From: Escherichia coli
GTDB taxonomy: Bacteria; Pseudomonadota; Gammaproteobacteria; Enterobacterales; Enterobacteriaceae
Direction: 5' to 3' (one strand)
Assembly: GCF_003018255.1 (NCBI RefSeq)
Contig: NZ_CP027440.1
Length of the DNA: 64,000 nt
A program made the translations under genes and the position numbers. The notes below the pieces were generated by a model. It did not search any database. It had not been told where the DNA came from and worked only from the letters and a program-made list of their open reading frames with translations. Shown here piece by piece: positions 1 to 41,368 of the stretch (position 1 is its first letter; each line of letters begins with the position of its first letter).

Positions 1-3279
<3,279 letters not shown>

Positions 3280-3288
3280 TTTGCAACG

Positions 3289-3376
<88 letters not shown>

Positions 3377-3477
3377 TACCACCGGGCGTATTCTTTTTGA
3401 ATCCCATCACAAACCCCGCACTCCCCTTTTCCCTTTTCTCTGGCGACAGCTAAATTAGAACTCATCCGACCACATAA

Positions 3478-5523
<2,046 letters not shown>

Positions 5524-5536
5524 ATCGTTATTTGAA

Positions 5537-5562
5537 GCGCCGGATGCAACGCATCCGGCACG
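5537..5562. terminator. Palindromic hairpin between convergent fadH and higA
   Basis: gcgccggatgcaacgcatccggcac inverted repeat. Confidence 0.5.
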
Positions 5563-5567
5563 TCGCG

Positions 5568-5984
5568 TTAATCAATAAACAAGGCGGGAGAAATGCCGAA
5601 TCGCGTTGCCAATTTTTTAGCGTGTTCCAGCGTTAATTTCCTCTTCCCGCTCAAAACGCGTGACACCATCGATTTACTGCCAATTTCCGGAAGATCGGAA
5701 AGGGTTAAACCATATTGATCCATAAGGGTACGAATCACAGCTATACCGCCAGGCATGGCTTGCGCCATGGCATTAAATTCAGCAAATTCGGGCGCTGATT
5801 CTTCCCACGCGGTTATTTTGGCACACACCAGATCCAGCAAGGGGTTTTCAGGATCGTTGAGCAGCAGATGATCTACCAGTTCCAGCGCCTGGGTGTATTG
5901 TTCCTCGTTCTGAATACCCGCCAGAAAAGGTGCCACAGCAGTTAACTTTTCTCCTGCTTGCAAGATGTCGGCAATCGCAATCAT
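5568..5984 (-). CDS. higA: Antitoxin HigA (Xre-family HTH)
   Basis: 138-aa ORF; C-terminal HTH region (LTLEHAKKLATRFGISPALF); start overlaps stop of upstream higB remnant (ATGA). Confidence 0.9.
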   Translation of the reverse strand: MIAIADILQAGEKLTAVAPFLAGIQNEEQYTQALELVDHLLLNDPENPLLDLVCAKITAWEESAPEFAEFNAMAQAMPGGIAVIRTLMDQYGLTLSDLPEIGSKSMVSRVLSGKRKLTLEHAKKLATRFGISPALFID

Positions 5985-6060
5985 TTTTTCCCCTTAGTAC
6001 GATGAACGGCGGTAAAGAAATCGTATTCTTTATGCGTCATAACTTCACGTATGTAGCATA
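5981..6060 (-). pseudogene. higB: higB toxin remnant (C-terminal ~26 codons only)
   Basis: Minus-strand translation gives ...CYIREVMTHKEYDFFTAVHRTKGKK* matching the HigB C-terminus as I recall it; upstream sequence diverges into REP-containing DNA. Confidence 0.5.
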
Positions 6061-6152
6061 AACGTAGAAAAACGCTAAACAAGAGAATGTAGAGGATGGT
6101 GACAGGGATTTTTTGTTTTATGGAAGCGCGATTCCAGAACTGGGCAGACATT

Positions 6153-6240
6153 GCCGGATGCGACGCTTGCCGCGTCTTATCCGACCTGGGGGTAATGTGC
6201 TGAACGTATGCCAGATAAGGCGTTTACGCCTTATCTGGCA
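6153..6240. repeat. REP/BIME palindromic repeats
   Basis: gccggatgcgacgcttgccgcgtcttatccgacctgg and gccagataaggcgtttacgccttatctggca. Confidence 0.8.
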
Positions 6241-6254
6241 GGTAGCTGCCAATC

Positions 6255-7391
6255 TTACCGACGACGCCCCAGCTTCACTGCTTTCAGCACCACAAATTTA
6301 TTATTCGTGGCGATGGTGGTGCAGTTGCCGAAAATCTTCTTCAGTTTATGGAAGTAATCCAGGTGACGGTTGGCAACGATATACAGCTCGCCGTTGATTT
6401 TCAGACAGCGGCGGGCGTGGTGGAACATCTCCCAGGCGACGTTATCGGTCAGCGCATGTTGCTGATGAAACGGCGGGTTGCAGAGCACAGCATTAAAACG
6501 GAAAGGCTCCACGCCGGAGAGCGCGTTGTTGATCATAAACTCGCAGCGATCCAACGCCTCTGGCATGTTGGTTTCAACGTTTAAACGGCTGGAAGCAACC
6601 GCCATCGGCGATTCATCGACAAACACCACTTTCGCCTGCGGGTTTTTATCAAGCAGCGTCAGACCAATAACGCCATTACCACAACCGAGATCGACAATCT
6701 CACCTTCGAGATTCTCTGGCAGATGCTGCATAAAGAAGCGCGCGCCAATATCCAGCCCGGTGCGGGAGAAGACATTCGCATGGTTGTGGATAGTCCAGTC
6801 AGTACCTTCCAGTTTCCAGCTAACGGTCTGCGGCGCATCGGCCAACGGCGGCTCGTTGAAAGTACAGTTAATTAAGCGTGCCTTCTTCCATGCCAGCGTG
6901 GTGGTGGTCGGGCCGAGCACTTTTTCGAACAGTTCCAGCGTGGAAGTGTGGATGTCACGGGCTTTGGCACCGGCAATAATACGTGTATCCGGCGTGACCA
7001 CTTTGCGCAGCGCACGCAGTTGTTGTTCCAGCAACGCCAGTGTTTTCGGTACTTTGATCAGTACCACGCCCGGCTGTTGCGGGTAGTCGGCGGTGCTGTC
7101 GAGAAACTTCACGCTCGACTCATCAATCCCGTTGAGGCGTAAATTCTCGCGCGTCGCCAGTTCGCTGATGTATGAGTCGCCAATGCTGTATGGCTTATGT
7201 TCCGCCAGCGCACAACTTAACGCACCAAAGGCATCATTCAGGATCAACACCGGGCCGCGGATTTCTGTGTCGTCCAACTGTTGCAGCAAATATTCATCCG
7301 CCGCTTCCCACGCCTGTAGTGGGTTAACGTCATCCGTCGCCGGAAAACGTTGTAGTGTCAGTGAACGGAAACCGTTGTCTAAGTGGCTCAT
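6255..7391 (-). CDS. rlmG: 23S rRNA (guanine1835-N2)-methyltransferase
   Basis: 378-aa ORF; SAM-methyltransferase motif region ([11 protein letters not shown]). Confidence 0.9.
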
Positions 7392-7475
7392 CGGCCCTCC
7401 TGAATGATAAAATTTCGACGTTGCCCCTGAAAAGGGTGCGTGAGTATACCCTTTTTCTCTTTTTCGTGGGCGGTT

Positions 7476-7979
7476 ATGAGCAATCTTACTTATCTTCAGG
7501 GTTATCCCGAGCAGCTACTTTCCCAGGTGCGAACGCTGATTAACGAACAGCGTCTGGGCGATGTGCTGGCAAAACGCTATCCGGGAACACACGACTACGC
7601 CACCGATAAAGCCCTCTGGCAATATACTCAGGATCTTAAAAATCAGTTTCTGCGCAATGCCCCGCCGATCACTAAAGTGATGTATGACAATAAGATCCAT
7701 GTGCTGAAAAACGCGCTCGGGTTACATACCGCTGTTTCGCGTGTGCAGGGCGGCAAGCTGAAAGCAAAGGCGGAGATCCGCGTCGCTACCGTGTTTCGCA
7801 ACGCGCCGGAACCGTTTTTGCGCATGATCGTGGTGCACGAGTTGGCGCACCTGAAGGAGAAAGAGCATAACAAAGCGTTCTATCAATTGTGCTGCCATAT
7901 GGAGCCGCAGTACCACCAGCTTGAGTTCGACACCCGGCTGTGGCTAACGCAGTTGTCGCTTGGGCAGGACAAAATCTGA
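7476..7979 (+). CDS. ygjP: YgjP-family metal-dependent hydrolase (HExxH)
   Basis: 167 aa from ATG at 7476 (ORF track begins at 7440); HELAHL motif. Confidence 0.8.
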
Positions 7980-8055
7980 AAATGATGTCAGGCGTTATCT
8001 TTTCTTCCTATAGCGCCTAAAATCGACCTCCCCCCTTTCGTTAAGGATAACGACC

Positions 8056-8739
8056 ATGCAGCCCCGCCTTCTTCTCCGTATTTGTTTTTCTCGCCGGACT
8101 CTTAAAATTGGCTGTTTATTGTTGCTTATAGCAGGAGCGACCATTTTTATTGCCGATCGCGTTATGGTCAACACCAGCAAGCAGCTGACCTGGAGCGATG
8201 TCAGCGCAGTTCCGGCGCGTAACGTGGGTTTATTGCTGGGGGCGAGGCCGGGTAATCGCTACTTTACCCGACGTATTGATACCGCAGCAGCGTTGTACCA
8301 CGCCGGAAAAGTGAAATGGCTACTGGTAAGTGGCGATAACGGGCGTAAAAATTACGATGAAGCCTCAGGTATGCAGCAGGCTTTGATCGCTAAAGGCGTA
8401 CCGGCGAAAGTGATCTTCTGCGACTATGCCGGATTCTCAACGCTTGATTCGGTGGTGCGTGCCAAAAAGGTGTTTGGGGAAAACCATATCACCATTATTT
8501 CGCAAGAATTTCATAACCAACGCGCCATCTGGCTGGCAAAACAGTACGGCATCGACGCTATCGGTTTTAACGCGCCAGACCTCAATATGAAGCACGGTTT
8601 TTATACTCAACTGCGGGAGAAACTCGCTCGCGTCGGCGCGGTGATTGACGCAAAAATCCTCCATCGCCAGCCGAAATATCTCGGGCCATCGGTCATGATT
8701 GGGCCGTTTAGTGAGCATGGCTGTCCGGCGCAGAAATAA
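8056..8739 (+). CDS. ygjQ: DUF218/YgjQ-family membrane-anchored protein
   Basis: 227-aa ORF with N-terminal hydrophobic segment. Confidence 0.8.
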
Positions 8740-8817
8740 TGCGTATCTGCGCACGTCGAAGATGAAAAAGGCGTGCTACATTGACGGCAGAATCCCTTTA
8801 TGGAGTATCCACGCGTT

Positions 8818-9804
8818 ATGATACGTTTCGCTGTGATTGGTACGAACTGGATCACTCGCCAGTTCGTCGAGGCCGCCCATGAGAGCGGTAAATACAAGTT
8901 AACCGCCGTATATTCCCGCAGCCTTGAACAGGCCCAGCACTTTGCCAATGATTTTTCTGTCGAGCATCTGTTTACGTCGCTGGAAGCGATGGCGGAAAGC
9001 GATGCCATTGACGCGGTGTATATTGCCAGCCCGAATGCCCTGCACTTTTCCCAGACACAACTTTTCCTTAGTCACAAAATTCATGTGATTTGCGAGAAGC
9101 CGCTGGCATCGAATCTGGCGGAAGTGGATGCCGCCATTGCCTGTGCGCGGGAAAATCAGGTGGTGCTGTTTGAGGCATTTAAAACGGCCTACCTGCCGAA
9201 CTTTCATCTGTTGCGCCAGGCGCTGCCGAAAGTCGGCAAACTGCGTAAAGTCTTTTTCAACTATTGCCAGTATTCCTCGCGGTATCAACGTTACCTGGAT
9301 GGTGAGAATCCCAACACCTTTAATCCAGCATTCTCTAACGGTTCAATTATGGATATCGGCTTTTACTGTCTGGCGTCGGCGGTGGCATTATTCGGTGAAC
9401 CGAAAAACGTGCAGGCAACCGCCAGTTTGCTGGCAAGCGGTGTGGATGCCCACGGCGTGGTGGTGATGGATTACGGTGATTTCAGCGTTACGTTGCAGCA
9501 CTCAAAAGTGAGCGATTCTGTCCTGGCAAGCGAGATTCAGGGCGAAGCGGGATCGCTGGTGATTGAAAAACTGTCTGAATGCCAGAAAGTGTGTTTTGTG
9601 CCGCGTGGCAGCCAGATGCAGGATCTGACCCAACCGCAGCATATTAATACCATGCTCTACGAAGCAGAGCTGTTTGCTGAACTGGTGGATGAGCATCTGG
9701 TGGATCATCCAGGGCTGGCGGTCAGTCGCATCACCGCTAAACTGCTGACCGAGATCCGCCGCCAGACTGGGGTGATTTTTCCGGCAGATAGCGTAAAACT
9801 ATAA
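8818..9804 (+). CDS. ygjR: Gfo/Idh/MocA-family NAD(P)-dependent oxidoreductase
   Basis: Start at ATG 8818 (MIRFAVIGTNWIT Rossmann N-terminus); 328 aa. Confidence 0.85.
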   Translation: MIRFAVIGTNWITRQFVEAAHESGKYKLTAVYSRSLEQAQHFANDFSVEHLFTSLEAMAESDAIDAVYIASPNALHFSQTQLFLSHKIHVICEKPLASNLAEVDAAIACARENQVVLFEAFKTAYLPNFHLLRQALPKVGKLRKVFFNYCQYSSRYQRYLDGENPNTFNPAFSNGSIMDIGFYCLASAVALFGEPKNVQATASLLASGVDAHGVVVMDYGDFSVTLQHSKVSDSVLASEIQGEAGSLVIEKLSECQKVCFVPRGSQMQDLTQPQHINTMLYEAELFAELVDEHLVDHPGLAVSRITAKLLTEIRRQTGVIFPADSVKL

Positions 9805-9859
9805 TTGCCAAAGTAAAACAGTGTAAAAGGTATGTAACAGACCATTGACTGACTGAATG

Positions 9860-10086
9860 GTCTGTCATACTTTGTTACCTGCAAAGGGGAGTAACTTCAT
9901 TGCCGGTCGATCGTCATTACGATGTGTGAAAAACCACATCCGGTCACCGGGCAACCCGAAAGGAATACGCAGACGTATTCCTTTTTTGTTGTAAGTGAGA
10001 CCTTGCCGGAAGGCGAGGTCTATGCATAAAAAGCAGCGGCTGACGTCTTCCGACGTTGGCCGTTTTTTTATGTGTAAGGAACTTCT
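9860..10086 (+). ncRNA. alx 5' leader: yybP-ykoY-type (Mn2+/pH-responsive) riboswitch region
   Basis: aaaggggagta motif at 9883-9893 and hairpin plus T-run ggaatacgcagacgtattcctttttt upstream of alx; E. coli alx is known to carry this leader. Confidence 0.55.
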
Positions 10087-11052
10087 ATGAATACTGTCGG
10101 CACGCCGTTGCTATGGGGCGGATTCGCTGTTGTTGTCACCATTATGCTGGCTATCGACCTGTTGTTGCAGGGGCGTCGTGGGGCACATGCCATGACCATG
10201 AAACAGGCTGCGGCCTGGTCGCTGGTCTGGGTGACGCTGTCGTTACTGTTTAACGCCGCTTTCTGGTGGTATCTGGTGCAAACCGAAGGTCGCGCCGTTG
10301 CCGATCCACAGGCACTGGCCTTTCTCACGGGTTATCTGATTGAGAAATCGCTGGCGGTCGATAACGTCTTTGTCTGGCTGATGTTGTTCAGCTATTTCTC
10401 TGTTCCGGCGGCATTACAACGCCGCGTGCTGGTGTATGGCGTGCTCGGGGCGATTGTTCTGCGTACCATCATGATCTTCACTGGCAGCTGGCTGATTTCA
10501 CAGTTCGACTGGATCCTGTATATCTTCGGTGCCTTCCTGCTGTTTACCGGCGTGAAGATGGCGCTCGCCCATGAAGATGAATCAGGCATTGGCGACAAGC
10601 CGCTGGTGCGCTGGCTGCGCGGTCATTTGCGCATGACCGACACCATCGACAACGAGCATTTCTTTGTGCGTAAAAATGGTTTGTTGTATGCCACGCCGCT
10701 GATGCTGGTGCTGATTCTGGTGGAGTTGAGCGACGTGATTTTCGCCGTGGATAGTATTCCGGCTATCTTCGCCGTAACCACCGATCCGTTTATTGTGCTG
10801 ACCTCAAACCTGTTTGCGATCCTCGGCCTGCGTGCGATGTATTTCCTGCTGGCAGGTGTGGCAGAGCGTTTCTCGATGCTCAAATATGGTCTGGCGGTGA
10901 TTCTGGTGTTTATCGGTATCAAGATGCTGATTGTCGACTTCTACCATATTCCGATCGCCGTCTCGCTGGGCGTGGTGTTTGGCATTCTGGTGATGACGTT
11001 TATTATCAACGCCTGGGTGAATTATCGGCATGATAAGCAGCGGGGAGAATGA
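10087..11052 (+). CDS. alx: TerC-family membrane protein Alx (putative Mn2+ exporter)
   Basis: 321-aa polytopic membrane ORF. Confidence 0.9.
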
Positions 11053-11144
11053 TTCGCTGTATATTAAGCCATTACTAGAGATAACTCATTCCAGACAAAG
11101 GTGAGCTATTAATTATGTAATCGGCTTATAGCTCTTTACAAAAA

Positions 11145-11390
11145 GACCGCACGGGTGTTGGTGGCGTCAAAATCGCCGAAGCGTTCCCTGGAGGCCGGGG
11201 CGACGCGCATGGATGCGCGGCGAGGGCGCATCTTACAGGGACGTTCCCTTGCGCCCGACCCGGTAGCCGCAAGGGATAAGCTGAGGGAACCGCGCAGCGG
11301 CGATTTTGTTCGCCAGAGCCTGGGGGTGCAGGGGGCGGCGGCGATTGGCCGCCCCCTGCGCGCTCCCTGCGCCAGTGGCTTTATATGGCA
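11145..11390. repeat. GC-rich palindromic intergenic element of unknown identity
   Basis: Inverted arms ggcgtcaaaatcgccgaagcg / cgcagcggcgattttgttcgcc; internal palindromes gcgcatggatgcgc and gttccctg...cagggacgttccc; local GC far above flanks. Confidence 0.4.
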
Positions 11391-37776: not shown

Positions 37777-38715
37777 CTAATCAACTTCAATTAATTGCCT
37801 TCGTCTACACCCATTATAAGATGAATACTCTTTGGCTAATTCCACCAAAACCGATGCTGCTTTTTTAATACGATAATTTTTCGACCATACCGCGGCATAT
37901 TGTGCCACAGGTAATGTTTCTTCAACCGGAATAGTAATAAATTGATTAGAACCAAAAGGTGATGTCATATCACAAGGAATTACAGTTAAGAAATCAGCAT
38001 TGAGAACAAGATTATAAATTGTCACGACTGAGTCGGTTTTAACGATGTTTTCAATACTGATGCCATTTCTTTGTAACGTAGTAAGCAGCTCGCTGTAGTA
38101 CCCCATATTGGTTTGTGGCAACACCCACTGTTCGTTCTTCAACGACTCCAGCGTGGTGGTGCCGGTGCATGTTCGGGACTTACTGGCTACCAGCACAAAC
38201 TCGGACTCGAACAGCGGCTCAACATGTAAATCCTGAAGCTTCATTTCTGCGCTTAACGTACCAATCGCAAAATCCAGTCGACCGTCGCGGATTGCCGGTA
38301 AGAACGAAGACAGTTGCGCTTCATACATAGAAACCTGCGCTTTCGGGAACACCTCTTTGAACTTGTTGATCATCCCGGACATAAAAGTAAAACCAATCAA
38401 TGAAGGAAAACCAAATGAGACTTCCACCACCGCCTCAGAAGACATACCGCTTATCTCATTAACCATATTTTTCATTTCACGGGTAATGGATTCGGAACGG
38501 GAGAGTAACAATTGACCGGCAGGTGTTAATGTTACACCGGTATTTTTCCGCACCACTAACTCCACACCAAAATAATCTTCAATATCGTTAATGATTTTAC
38601 TGACGGCCGGTTGAGTTAACCCTAACTCTTTTGCAGCCGAGCCGATAGAACCACTTCTAATAACTTCCTGAAAGACTACCAGGTGCTGCGTTTTCGGAAG
38701 AAGAATAGTGCTCAT
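37777..38715 (-). CDS. tdcA: LysR-family activator of the tdc operon
   Basis: 312-aa ORF. Confidence 0.9.
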   Translation of the reverse strand: MSTILLPKTQHLVVFQEVIRSGSIGSAAKELGLTQPAVSKIINDIEDYFGVELVVRKNTGVTLTPAGQLLLSRSESITREMKNMVNEISGMSSEAVVEVSFGFPSLIGFTFMSGMINKFKEVFPKAQVSMYEAQLSSFLPAIRDGRLDFAIGTLSAEMKLQDLHVEPLFESEFVLVASKSRTCTGTTTLESLKNEQWVLPQTNMGYYSELLTTLQRNGISIENIVKTDSVVTIYNLVLNADFLTVIPCDMTSPFGSNQFITIPVEETLPVAQYAAVWSKNYRIKKAASVLVELAKEYSSYNGCRRRQLIEVD

Positions 38716-38900
38716 AACGACCTACGTTAATTACCTCATTGACGGCATGAAGTGTATCAAAATGAAATGAACAGGATATGTGCGACCACTCACAAATTAA
38801 CTTTCAATACTTTCCAGGGTATCGTTATTACAATTAAATATCTTTATATATCAATGAGTTAAAGTATAAAAATCAGCATAAACCCTGATTTTTGTCAAAA
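38716..38900 (-). promoter_or_regulatory. tdc operon promoter region with candidate CRP site
   Basis: tgtgcgaccactcacaa at 38779-38795 fits the TGTGA-N6-TCACA CRP consensus; AT-rich upstream DNA. Confidence 0.5.
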
Positions 38901-39029
38901 AAAATGACGGGGATAACCATATTTTATGGCGATAACATCATTCGTTATGTGGTTAATACAAAAAAGGGGCTGAGACCATATTTCAAGCAATTACCGGATA
39001 ATTACCAGGCAAAATTTGAGTTAAATTTA

Positions 39030-39248
39030 ATGAGCAAGTTCTCAAATTTTATTATAAATAAATCATTTTCAGTGATAAATAATGCGGCACGTCACATTTT
39101 TTCACGCTATTTGTTGGAGAACAAACATTTATTTTATCAATATTTTAAAATTTCGAATACAGGTATCGATCATCTCGAACAATTGATTAACGTCAACTTT
39201 TTCTCTTCTGACAGGACGTCATTTTGTGAATGCAATCGTTTTCCATAA
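39030..39248 (+). CDS. tdcR: Small regulator TdcR
   Basis: 72 aa from MSKFSNFIINKSF...; the ORF track offers a 118-aa extension from 38892. Confidence 0.65.
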   Translation: MSKFSNFIINKSFSVINNAARHIFSRYLLENKHLFYQYFKISNTGIDHLEQLINVNFFSSDRTSFCECNRFP

Positions 39249-39780
39249 ATTCCTCTCCCCTCATAGGCGACGAATAGCATTTTGTGTTGAGGATCACAAA
39301 ACGAATAATTGCTGGTCGCCGCGATAAGGTCAGACGAAGACAACAAGGGGGATTCTCACTGTGCTTTACATCAGCGTAGGCCATAGAATGTTGCTTCGTT
39401 GACTGTAATGCCGGGTAAATGAGCATTTTTTGATAGTGCGAAAGAACCCTGCGAGGAAAATAAGCATCTATTATTGTTTGTCATGATGACAAGGCAGGCA
39501 TCAATGAAAGGCTTCCCAATTGCACATATTTTTCACCCTTCAATCCCGCCAATGCACGCAGTGGTTAACAATCACAACAGAAATATTGATTATTGGACGG
39601 TAAAAATTTAGGTTATAACGCCCAAATGATTCAACGATCGGACAATACCTGCGAACTTACAATTAATGAGAGAAATATATGTATAATTACGACCTTTTAA
39701 ATGCAATATAGACTTAATAACTTCTTACAAAGTCTATTATTAATACCGTAGATATTCATCTTACCCTGGGCACCAAAAGC

Positions 39781-39807
39781 AAAAACCCGCCGAAGCGGGT
39801 TTTTACG
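39781..39807 (-). terminator. rnpB Rho-independent terminator
   Basis: Minus-strand aaaaacccgcttcggcgggttttt. Confidence 0.85.
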
Positions 39808-39813
39808 TAAATC

Positions 39814-40190
<377 letters not shown>

Positions 40191-40196
40191 GGCGCG

Positions 40197-40228
40197 CAGT
40201 ATAGAGGGTTTGCGCGCCCTTGTCACCC
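40197..40228 (-). promoter_or_regulatory. rnpB promoter overlapping the 3' end of garK
   Basis: Minus-strand -35 gtgaca (40221-40226) and -10 tatact (40199-40204) placed to start transcription at the rnpB 5' end. Confidence 0.6.
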
Positions 40229-41368
40229 CGCGTTGCGCATTCCAATCGCCAGTGTCGCGGCGATATTACGTGAAGCACGGCAGATATTGTCATAAGCTCC
40301 GCGGAATGCTTCGTCTAACGTACCAATGCTGGTCAATACGCTGAAGACCGCATCAATGCCATGCTGATGTACAACGCCAACATCATTGGTCAGGCTACCC
40401 GCAATGCCAATCACCGGTTTATGGTACTTTTTCGCCACGTTTGCGACGCCAATCGGAACCTTGCCGTGAATACTCTGGCTGTCAATACGCCCTTCACCGG
40501 TGATCACCAGCGTACAATCGTGAATATGTTCCTCCAGATTCAGCGCCGTAGTGACGATTTCAATACCACTTTTCAGTTCTGCACCAAGAAACGCCATCAG
40601 CGCCGCGCCCATACCACCCGCAGCTCCTGCGCCGGGGACATCTTTCACATCAACATGCAGCGCTTTTTTAATGACATCGGCATAGTGAGAGAGGTTATTG
40701 TCCAGCTCGACAATCATCGCTTCACTGGCTCCCTTTTGTGGGCCAAAGATGCGCGATGCGCCGTTATCGCCCACCAGCGGATTGGTGACATCACAAGCGA
40801 CGCGAATGACGCAATCTTTTAAGCGCGGATCGAGGCCGGAAATATCAATATCATTCAGAGTATTAAGACTACCGCCGCCAAAACCAATTTCATTGCCGTT
40901 GGCGTCGCATAATTTCGCCCCCAGCGCCTGTACCATGCCTGCGCCGCCATCATTTGTAGCGCTGCCGCCAATGCCGATAATAATGTTTGTTGCACCGCTC
41001 TCCAGCGCCTGCAGGATTAACTCGCCTGTGCCGCGTGAAGTGGTCACGAGTGGATCGCGTTTTTCCGCAGGTACCAGCTCCAGCCCACTGGCCGCCGCCA
41101 TTTCAATAAATGCGGTTTTGCCATCGCCGGAGATCCCCCAACTGGCATCCACTTTCTCGCCCAGCGGCCCTGTAACCCAGGCGTGACGTTCAGAACCCTG
41201 GGTAGCTGCAATCATCGCTTCCACCGTTCCTTCGCCACCATCGGCAACCGGAACAGAAACGTACTGTGCATCAGGAAAAATTTCCCGAAATCCTTTTTCT
41301 ATCGCCTGCGCAACCTCGCTGGCAGATAAACTTTCTTTATAAGAGTCTGGGGCGATTACGATTTTCAT
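40223..41368 (-). CDS. garK: Glycerate 2-kinase
   Basis: 381 aa from MKIVIAPDSYKESL. Confidence 0.9.
   Translation of the reverse strand: MKIVIAPDSYKESLSASEVAQAIEKGFREIFPDAQYVSVPVADGGEGTVEAMIAATQGSERHAWVTGPLGEKVDASWGISGDGKTAFIEMAAASGLELVPAEKRDPLVTTSRGTGELILQALESGATNIIIGIGGSATNDGGAGMVQALGAKLCDANGNEIGFGGGSLNTLNDIDISGLDPRLKDCVIRVACDVTNPLVGDNGASRIFGPQKGASEAMIVELDNNLSHYADVIKKALHVDVKDVPGAGAAGGMGAALMAFLGAELKSGIEIVTTALNLEEHIHDCTLVITGEGRIDSQSIHGKVPIGVANVAKKYHKPVIGIAGSLTNDVGVVHQHGIDAVFSVLTSIGTLDEAFRGAYDNICRASRNIAATLAIGMRNAG

Follow-up and report, generated by a model that had tools for sequence, protein, structure and literature searches.

The window analysed here is a stretch of 64,000 nucleotides from Escherichia coli (contig NZ_CP027440.1), and the interval of interest lies between the genes tdcR and rnpB. 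The left border is tdcR (39030–39248, plus strand), an intact coding sequence of 72 codons; tdcA is found at 37777–38715 on the minus strand. The TdcR protein passes the cutoff of the NCBIfam equivalog model NF008507 (171.5 bits, cutoff 100) and has three amino acid differences to the K-12 protein, and in the identical strain DETEC-S792 the same coding sequence is named tdcR. In ST131-type genomes (ST131, 3301–3519 of its locus; strain S2, 782–1000) the gene is a pseudogene with an internal stop. The right border is rnpB (39814–40190, minus strand), the class A RNase P RNA; Rfam model RF00010 matches it over the full length (model positions 1–367) with 319.7 bits (gathering score 100). The next gene beyond rnpB is garK.

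The gap between both genes (39249–39813) measures 565 bp and has a GC content of 40%, compared to 51% for the whole window. The equivalent gap of K-12 MG1655 is 2,617 bp long and comprises, besides yhaB (540 bp) and yhaC (1188 bp), a 113-bp tandem repeat that is present 3.5 times. An earlier reading of the window, made from the sequence only, had described a short AT-rich gap of this size and had stated that K-12 carries yhaB and yhaC, roughly 2.5 kb, at this place. Our comparison agrees on both points and confirms the order tdcR–yhaB–yhaC–rnpB in K-12; tdcR does not directly abut rnpB there.

Remnants of yhaB and yhaC

When the region is compared by blastn with the K-12 locus, four collinear blocks are found, whose junctions were then read at base level. 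The first block (38700–39606) comprises the 5′ end of tdcA, tdcR, the spacer, and nucleotides 1–103 of yhaB, with 97.1% identity to K-12. The second block (39607–39669) corresponds to nucleotides 270–332 of yhaC (93.7% to positions 5635–5697 of the K-12 locus), the third (39668–39802) to the last 44 nucleotides of yhaC and its 3′ flank (90.6%), and the fourth (39773–40300) to the rnpB terminator, rnpB, and garK (99.6%).

Within the interval, the native spacer between tdcR and yhaB, that is the 5′ region of yhaB, is complete (39249–39503, plus strand, 94.1% to positions 4550–4804 of the K-12 locus). It is followed by a reading frame of 35 codons (39504–39611, plus strand), which consists of yhaB codons 1–34 (39504–39605), an ATT codon for isoleucine, and a TAG stop. 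At the first deletion junction (39606/39607) nucleotide 103 of yhaB is joined to nucleotide 270 of yhaC with 0 bp of microhomology, and 727 bp are absent relative to K-12. The adjoining internal fragment of yhaC is 63 bp long (39607–39669, plus strand), covers codons 91–111 (LGYNAQMIQRSDNTCELTINE), and is recovered by tblastn with 95% identity over 21 amino acids (E=2e-10). At the second junction (39668–39671, about 39669/39670), which has a 2-bp GA microhomology, 812 bp of yhaC are absent. The last 42 nucleotides of yhaC follow (39670–39711, plus strand) and include the original TAG stop (39709–39711); this tail matches YhaC residues 383–395 in tblastn and its frame differs from that of the preceding yhaC piece. 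The 3′ flank of yhaC extends over 39712–39778 (plus strand), and its right part (about 39754–39778) resembles the tail of the 113-bp unit.

Thus, only codons 91–111 and the last ~14 codons of yhaC are left in the window, mutually out of frame. K-12 YhaC scores 887 bits with the NCBIfam model NF007262 (cutoff 765 bits), of which the window does not hold a full-length member. The yhaB–yhaC operon of K-12 (b3120/b3121; ‘protein YhaB’ and, for NF007262, ‘YhaC family protein’) has the same position, flanked by tdcR and rnpB. Compared with it, 1,539 bp of coding sequence are missing from the window, and neither protein can be made. We are therefore confident that the interval is a pseudogenised yhaB–yhaC operon with two internal deletions. 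As a start-less internal fragment of yhaC is still present, the direction of the change is from a long form to the short form by deletion.

We suggest the following course of events. The ancestor would have had the arrangement tdcR–yhaB–yhaC followed by about 107 bp of flank and then rnpB. In strain SCAID WND2 yhaB and yhaC are intact, 107 bp separate them from rnpB and the 113-bp array is absent; this structure could be the candidate parent arrangement. An illegitimate recombination without microhomology would have taken out the 727 bp that reach from codon 35 of yhaB into codon 90 of yhaC, and another one, at a 2-bp microhomology, would have taken out 812 bp, from yhaC codon 112 to 44 nucleotides before the stop. 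These events would leave over the yhaB 5′ region with 34 codons, the 63-bp yhaC island, the yhaC tail, and the rnpB terminator. With the isoleucine codon and the TAG supplied by the first junction, the 35-codon frame would have arisen incidentally. A third such deletion, confined to the short form and accounting for the missing 113-bp array, was considered and rejected, as array-free strains with intact yhaBC exist and 1,528 genomes are without the unit. Given that SCAID WND2 lacks the array, its absence from the window is a separate polymorphism. The count of 2,740 obtained with a probe for this third junction mixes several structures and is unfit as a frequency.

The gene remnant is real, explained, and already catalogued. 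In DETEC-S792 (100% identity over 1.6 kb) the PGAP annotation has two pseudogene fragments in exactly these positions (PID00_RS13885/13890), the stump being described as ‘missing C-terminus’ and the yhaC piece as ‘missing N- and C-terminus’. The same two fragments are marked in ST131, ATCC 25922, E10, HM50, A26, and S2. The exact peptide of 35 amino acids has also been deposited as a ‘conserved hypothetical protein’ (E. coli TA206 and M605; UniProt F4T3E4), and a variant of 32 amino acids falls in a cluster with CFT073 c3878 (‘hypothetical protein’). Sequence and coordinates in the RefSeq/PGAP and legacy records are thus the same as ours; these records say ‘hypothetical protein’, and the source genes yhaB and yhaC are unnamed there.

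The 35-codon reading frame

The length of the frame is unremarkable, since several further open reading frames of 30–58 codons are found within the interval. It stands above chance because residues 1–34 are identical to the N-terminus of K-12 YhaB (34/34, tblastn E=8e-23), the very comparison that had been proposed together with the frame, whose translation is exactly as quoted then. Full-length YhaB has ~179 amino acids with a conserved core at ~36–125; the frame ends at codon 35 and the core is deleted. Searches of the stump peptide against Pfam and NCBIfam gave no family match (the YhaB family is PF27690).

Among eight short-form sequences, the stump codons show the replacements P5S, F10L, and P16S, a single synonymous change, and a 9-bp deletion that keeps the frame and belongs to the ATCC 25922/A26 lineage; these are small counts. 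In these eight sequences of 35 codons selection on the peptide was not apparent, and the codon changes look neutral, with the same caution as to the counts.

Could the peptide nevertheless be a functional small protein? The promoter, the ribosome-binding region, and the start codon of yhaB would survive in the native 5′ region, which is retained; the frame is open in 8/8 short-form sequences, the sole indel is in frame, and several deposits call the frame as a protein. An open frame is weak evidence at a length of 35 codons, however, and three nonsynonymous changes versus one synonymous change are near the neutral expectation. Moreover, the isoleucine codon and the stop codon both arise across the first junction, so that the end of the frame is an accident of the deletion, and its 34 residues are the most variable stretch of intact YhaB in the alignment. 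The peptide is without a family match and RefSeq lists a pseudogene. We thus regard a function of the peptide, whether with 35 or 32 amino acids, as improbable. The sequence-only reading had left the choice between the stump of a lost gene and a small protein; the first part is borne out by yhaB codons 1–34 and the two yhaC fragments, whereas the second is unsupported. The frame itself is kept in the short-form strains sampled, and on the basis of these comparisons we treat it as a by-product of the deletion.

Frequency and history of the short form

The distribution of the short form was surveyed in 5,426 complete E. coli genomes, in which the junctions were sought with spanning probes of 70 nucleotides. 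The whole interval is present with at least 80% coverage in 1,062 genomes; the probe for the first junction is covered in 1,055 and that for the second in 1,059 of the 5,426. The similar counts indicate that both deletions travel together and that the short allele is found in ~20% of the genomes. Carriers include ST131, ATCC 25922, and CFT073, and B2 lineages are among them. One match to the interval sits on a record typed as plasmid.

The junctions are identical in 8/8 aligned short-form sequences. We infer that the short form had one origin, or that both steps were fixed ahead of its spread, a reading drawn from the alignment of these eight sequences. The remnant segments are 97–100% identical among short-form strains and 90–97% identical to intact alleles. 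The flanks of the window (tdcA–tdcR, garK) have 98.3–98.4% identity to K-12 but about 96% to B2 strains, and the yhaC remnants are 98–100% identical to those of B2 short-form strains (comparison of 38700–41368). Taken together, the remnant identities and the mosaic flanks argue for an old allele that is now found in diverged or mosaic backgrounds. The mosaic of flank and remnant suggests a recombinational spread of the short allele or old shared ancestry.

It is also conceivable that the short form is ancestral and that K-12-type genomes gained yhaBC by insertion. In an outgroup scan, which was anchored at TdcR in species-representative genomes and gave five loci, three cryptic-clade Escherichia have 235–372 bp between tdcR and rnpB, with units of the 113-bp type and without detectable yhaB or yhaC. 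Furthermore, yhaBC is AT-rich (32–36% GC) and narrowly distributed: a search of 5.8 billion clustered proteins gave homologues of YhaB and YhaC in E. coli and Shigella only. This fits PMC12218254, where yhaBC is listed with the young operons of unknown function. An insertion, however, cannot make three ordered coding pieces of yhaB and yhaC, one of which is an internal stretch of 21 codons without a start. In addition, Escherichia sp. MOD1-EC7003 keeps a relic of yhaC, an in-frame stretch of 53 nucleotides corresponding to codons 314–330 (6405–6457 of its locus) that was matched by 0/200 shuffles. The gap of this strain is otherwise free of yhaBC, keeps more of the spacer, and has breakpoints that differ from those of the window. 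The relic argues that yhaBC is older than this split and that at least two independent decays took place. Hence, a short ancestral form is very unlikely for the allele of the window, and we hold that it arose from a long form by deletion. Further back in the genus yhaBC might have been gained, which would leave the direction of the event in the window allele unaffected. The scan yielded no locus from E. albertii, E. fergusonii, or Salmonella, so that the deeper history is incomplete.

The lost genes themselves offer few hints. YhaB and YhaC gave no significant match to a function in Pfam, NCBIfam, PADLOC, PHROGs, and the PDB sequences. A match of YhaB residues 24–149 to the Bud32/KEOPS kinase model TIGR03724 is probably noise (E=0.0044; 16.5 bits, cutoff 125), and the idea that yhaBC, being hypervariable and present or absent, might be a defence system is unsupported, as PADLOC was without matches. 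AlphaFold2 models of YhaB and YhaC, built from shallow alignments, were unusable (mean pLDDT 33.5 and 31.4).

The identity of YhaC alleles varies between 99% and about 65%, and the divergent allele sits at the same locus. The allele with ~65% protein identity to K-12 YhaC (5001–6170 of three of the loci compared), together with a yhaB allele of 77%, is present in many genomes whose flanking genes have more than 93% DNA identity. This allelic divergence is unusually deep for a chromosomal site. The gene yhaC is listed among positively selected genes (PMC9110714). Common YhaB variants have frame-shifted C-termini, and one such cluster holds 3,287 member sequences, which suggests that decay of yhaB is under way in some operon-bearing strains as well. 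A contig labelled ‘uncultured Bacteroides sp.’ MAG (CAUHML010000178.1) is 98–100% identical to tdcA–tdcR–yhaB–yhaC of K-12; this match is almost certainly due to binning contamination.

The rnpB 3′ end and its surroundings

Downstream of rnpB a consensus scan found the intrinsic terminator of the gene (39779–39806, minus strand), with a stem of 12 bp, a TTCG loop, and a U tract. The fold has −19.4 kcal/mol and z = −5.0, and 0/200 shuffles were equally stable. On the plus strand the hairpin is followed by TTTTT and could also stop transcripts coming from the yhaB side. Within the last ~20 nucleotides of rnpB lies the attachment core CTGACCGATAAG (39822–39833, plus strand), which is unoccupied here. 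The window has a single copy of this core, whereas K-12 has four, one in each repeat unit.

Every 113-bp unit carries a copy of the terminator, the attachment core, and a divergent version of the final ~50 nucleotides of rnpB (K-12 6797–7189; window 39773–39863). The terminator and rnpB 3′ end of the window correspond to the final half-unit of the K-12 array; the window is without extra units, whereas K-12 has 3.5 and other strains have 0–8. By megablast the unit is absent in 1,528 of the 5,426 genomes and is found at 1–8 places in 3,898. Papers on the sequencing of rnpB from the early 1980s reportedly described the tandem repeats of 113 bp that lie beyond rnpB in K-12. The literature that we searched contained no description of these repeats and no statement of the chromosomal site of the flk islet.

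About 30 of the 5,426 genomes have an islet with an integrase directly beside rnpB, and at least two integrase families are involved. In strain CFSAN061761 the order is rnpB, a tyrosine integrase of 486 amino acids, a yfjJ-like gene, a Hin-like recombinase, a flagellin, a phase-1 flagellin repressor, IS remnants, 113-bp units, yhaC, yhaB, and tdcR, and the islet (1247–11300 of its locus) has a direct repeat around CTGACCGATAAG at both ends. Loci with an islet at the rnpB site were also obtained from EH10-18-47 and Z1323CEC0002. The islet of CFSAN061761 matches the flk genomic islet, an element for flagellin phase variation, which the original flk paper by Feng et al. from 2008 is said to place between yhaC and rnpB. 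According to PMC3378880 and PMC5422975, both of which cite Feng et al. 2008, the flk islet comprises the flagellin flkA, the repressor flkB, and the tyrosine recombinase Orf486. Strain ECC-1470, which carries the flk islet (PMC5422975), is also among the about 30 genomes with an integrase at rnpB.

These islets raise the question whether an integrase of the flk type removed yhaBC by site-specific excision, with the attachment site in rnpB as its target. Integrase islets do enter the rnpB 3′ end between direct repeats around the core, and Orf486 is reported to excise the flk islet through its flanking direct repeats (PMC3378880). The window shares the rnpB 3′ end and the core with these sites. 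Against this, the islet is absent from the window, in which we found no integrase and one core only, so that it is not an occupied site of the flk type. This single core lies within rnpB, and both junctions are inside the coding sequence of yhaB and yhaC, without the core and with 0 and 2 bp of homology. As the core was not used, the deletions of yhaBC are most likely ordinary illegitimate deletions and not excisions; we thus see hardly any room for excision, and the islet is not the cause of the deletions. Collapse of repeats beside rnpB during assembly is least credible of all, for although many strains have repetitive DNA downstream of rnpB, more than 1,050 genomes that were finished independently share this structure, and the breakpoints are outside the repeats.

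With two illegitimate deletions as the preferred explanation, the allele of the window adds to the variation seen at this site. Strain 300444 has an IS903B-linked deletion that begins within tdcA and ends shortly before rnpB (2264–4042 of its locus), AMSCJX02 has an IS621 insertion between yhaC and rnpB (2316–3296), and IS26 is found next to an integrase at this site. The yhaBC genes can be intact, divergent, or decayed. The suspicion, raised from the sequence alone, of an indel hotspot next to rnpB is thus well founded in view of 0–8 repeat copies, IS insertions and deletions, and integration of the flk islet: the region between tdcR and rnpB is supported as a hotspot with several independent kinds of structural variation. 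More speculatively, and with rather long odds, the region might be a graveyard of elements for which the rnpB 3′ end is a target, just as tRNA genes are for islands. The 113-bp units may then be amplified integration scars and the AT-rich, E. coli-restricted, and hypervariable yhaBC may be cargo left behind, whose most decayed state would be seen in the window. A narrower speculation is that the stump of 35 amino acids may be an expressed micro-protein.

The finding, by which the loss of two uncharacterised and lineage-restricted genes is documented in about a fifth of E. coli, matters little. The loss covers major extraintestinal lineages, namely ST131, the ST73-type ATCC 25922, and CFT073, and the short allele could be used as a simple lineage marker. 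‘Hypothetical protein’ calls like c3878 are gene stumps. The rnpB 3′ end acts like an integration site of the tRNA type, and the neighbouring DNA is structurally unstable. Finally, in view of the divergent yhaC alleles, the role of yhaBC may merit study.
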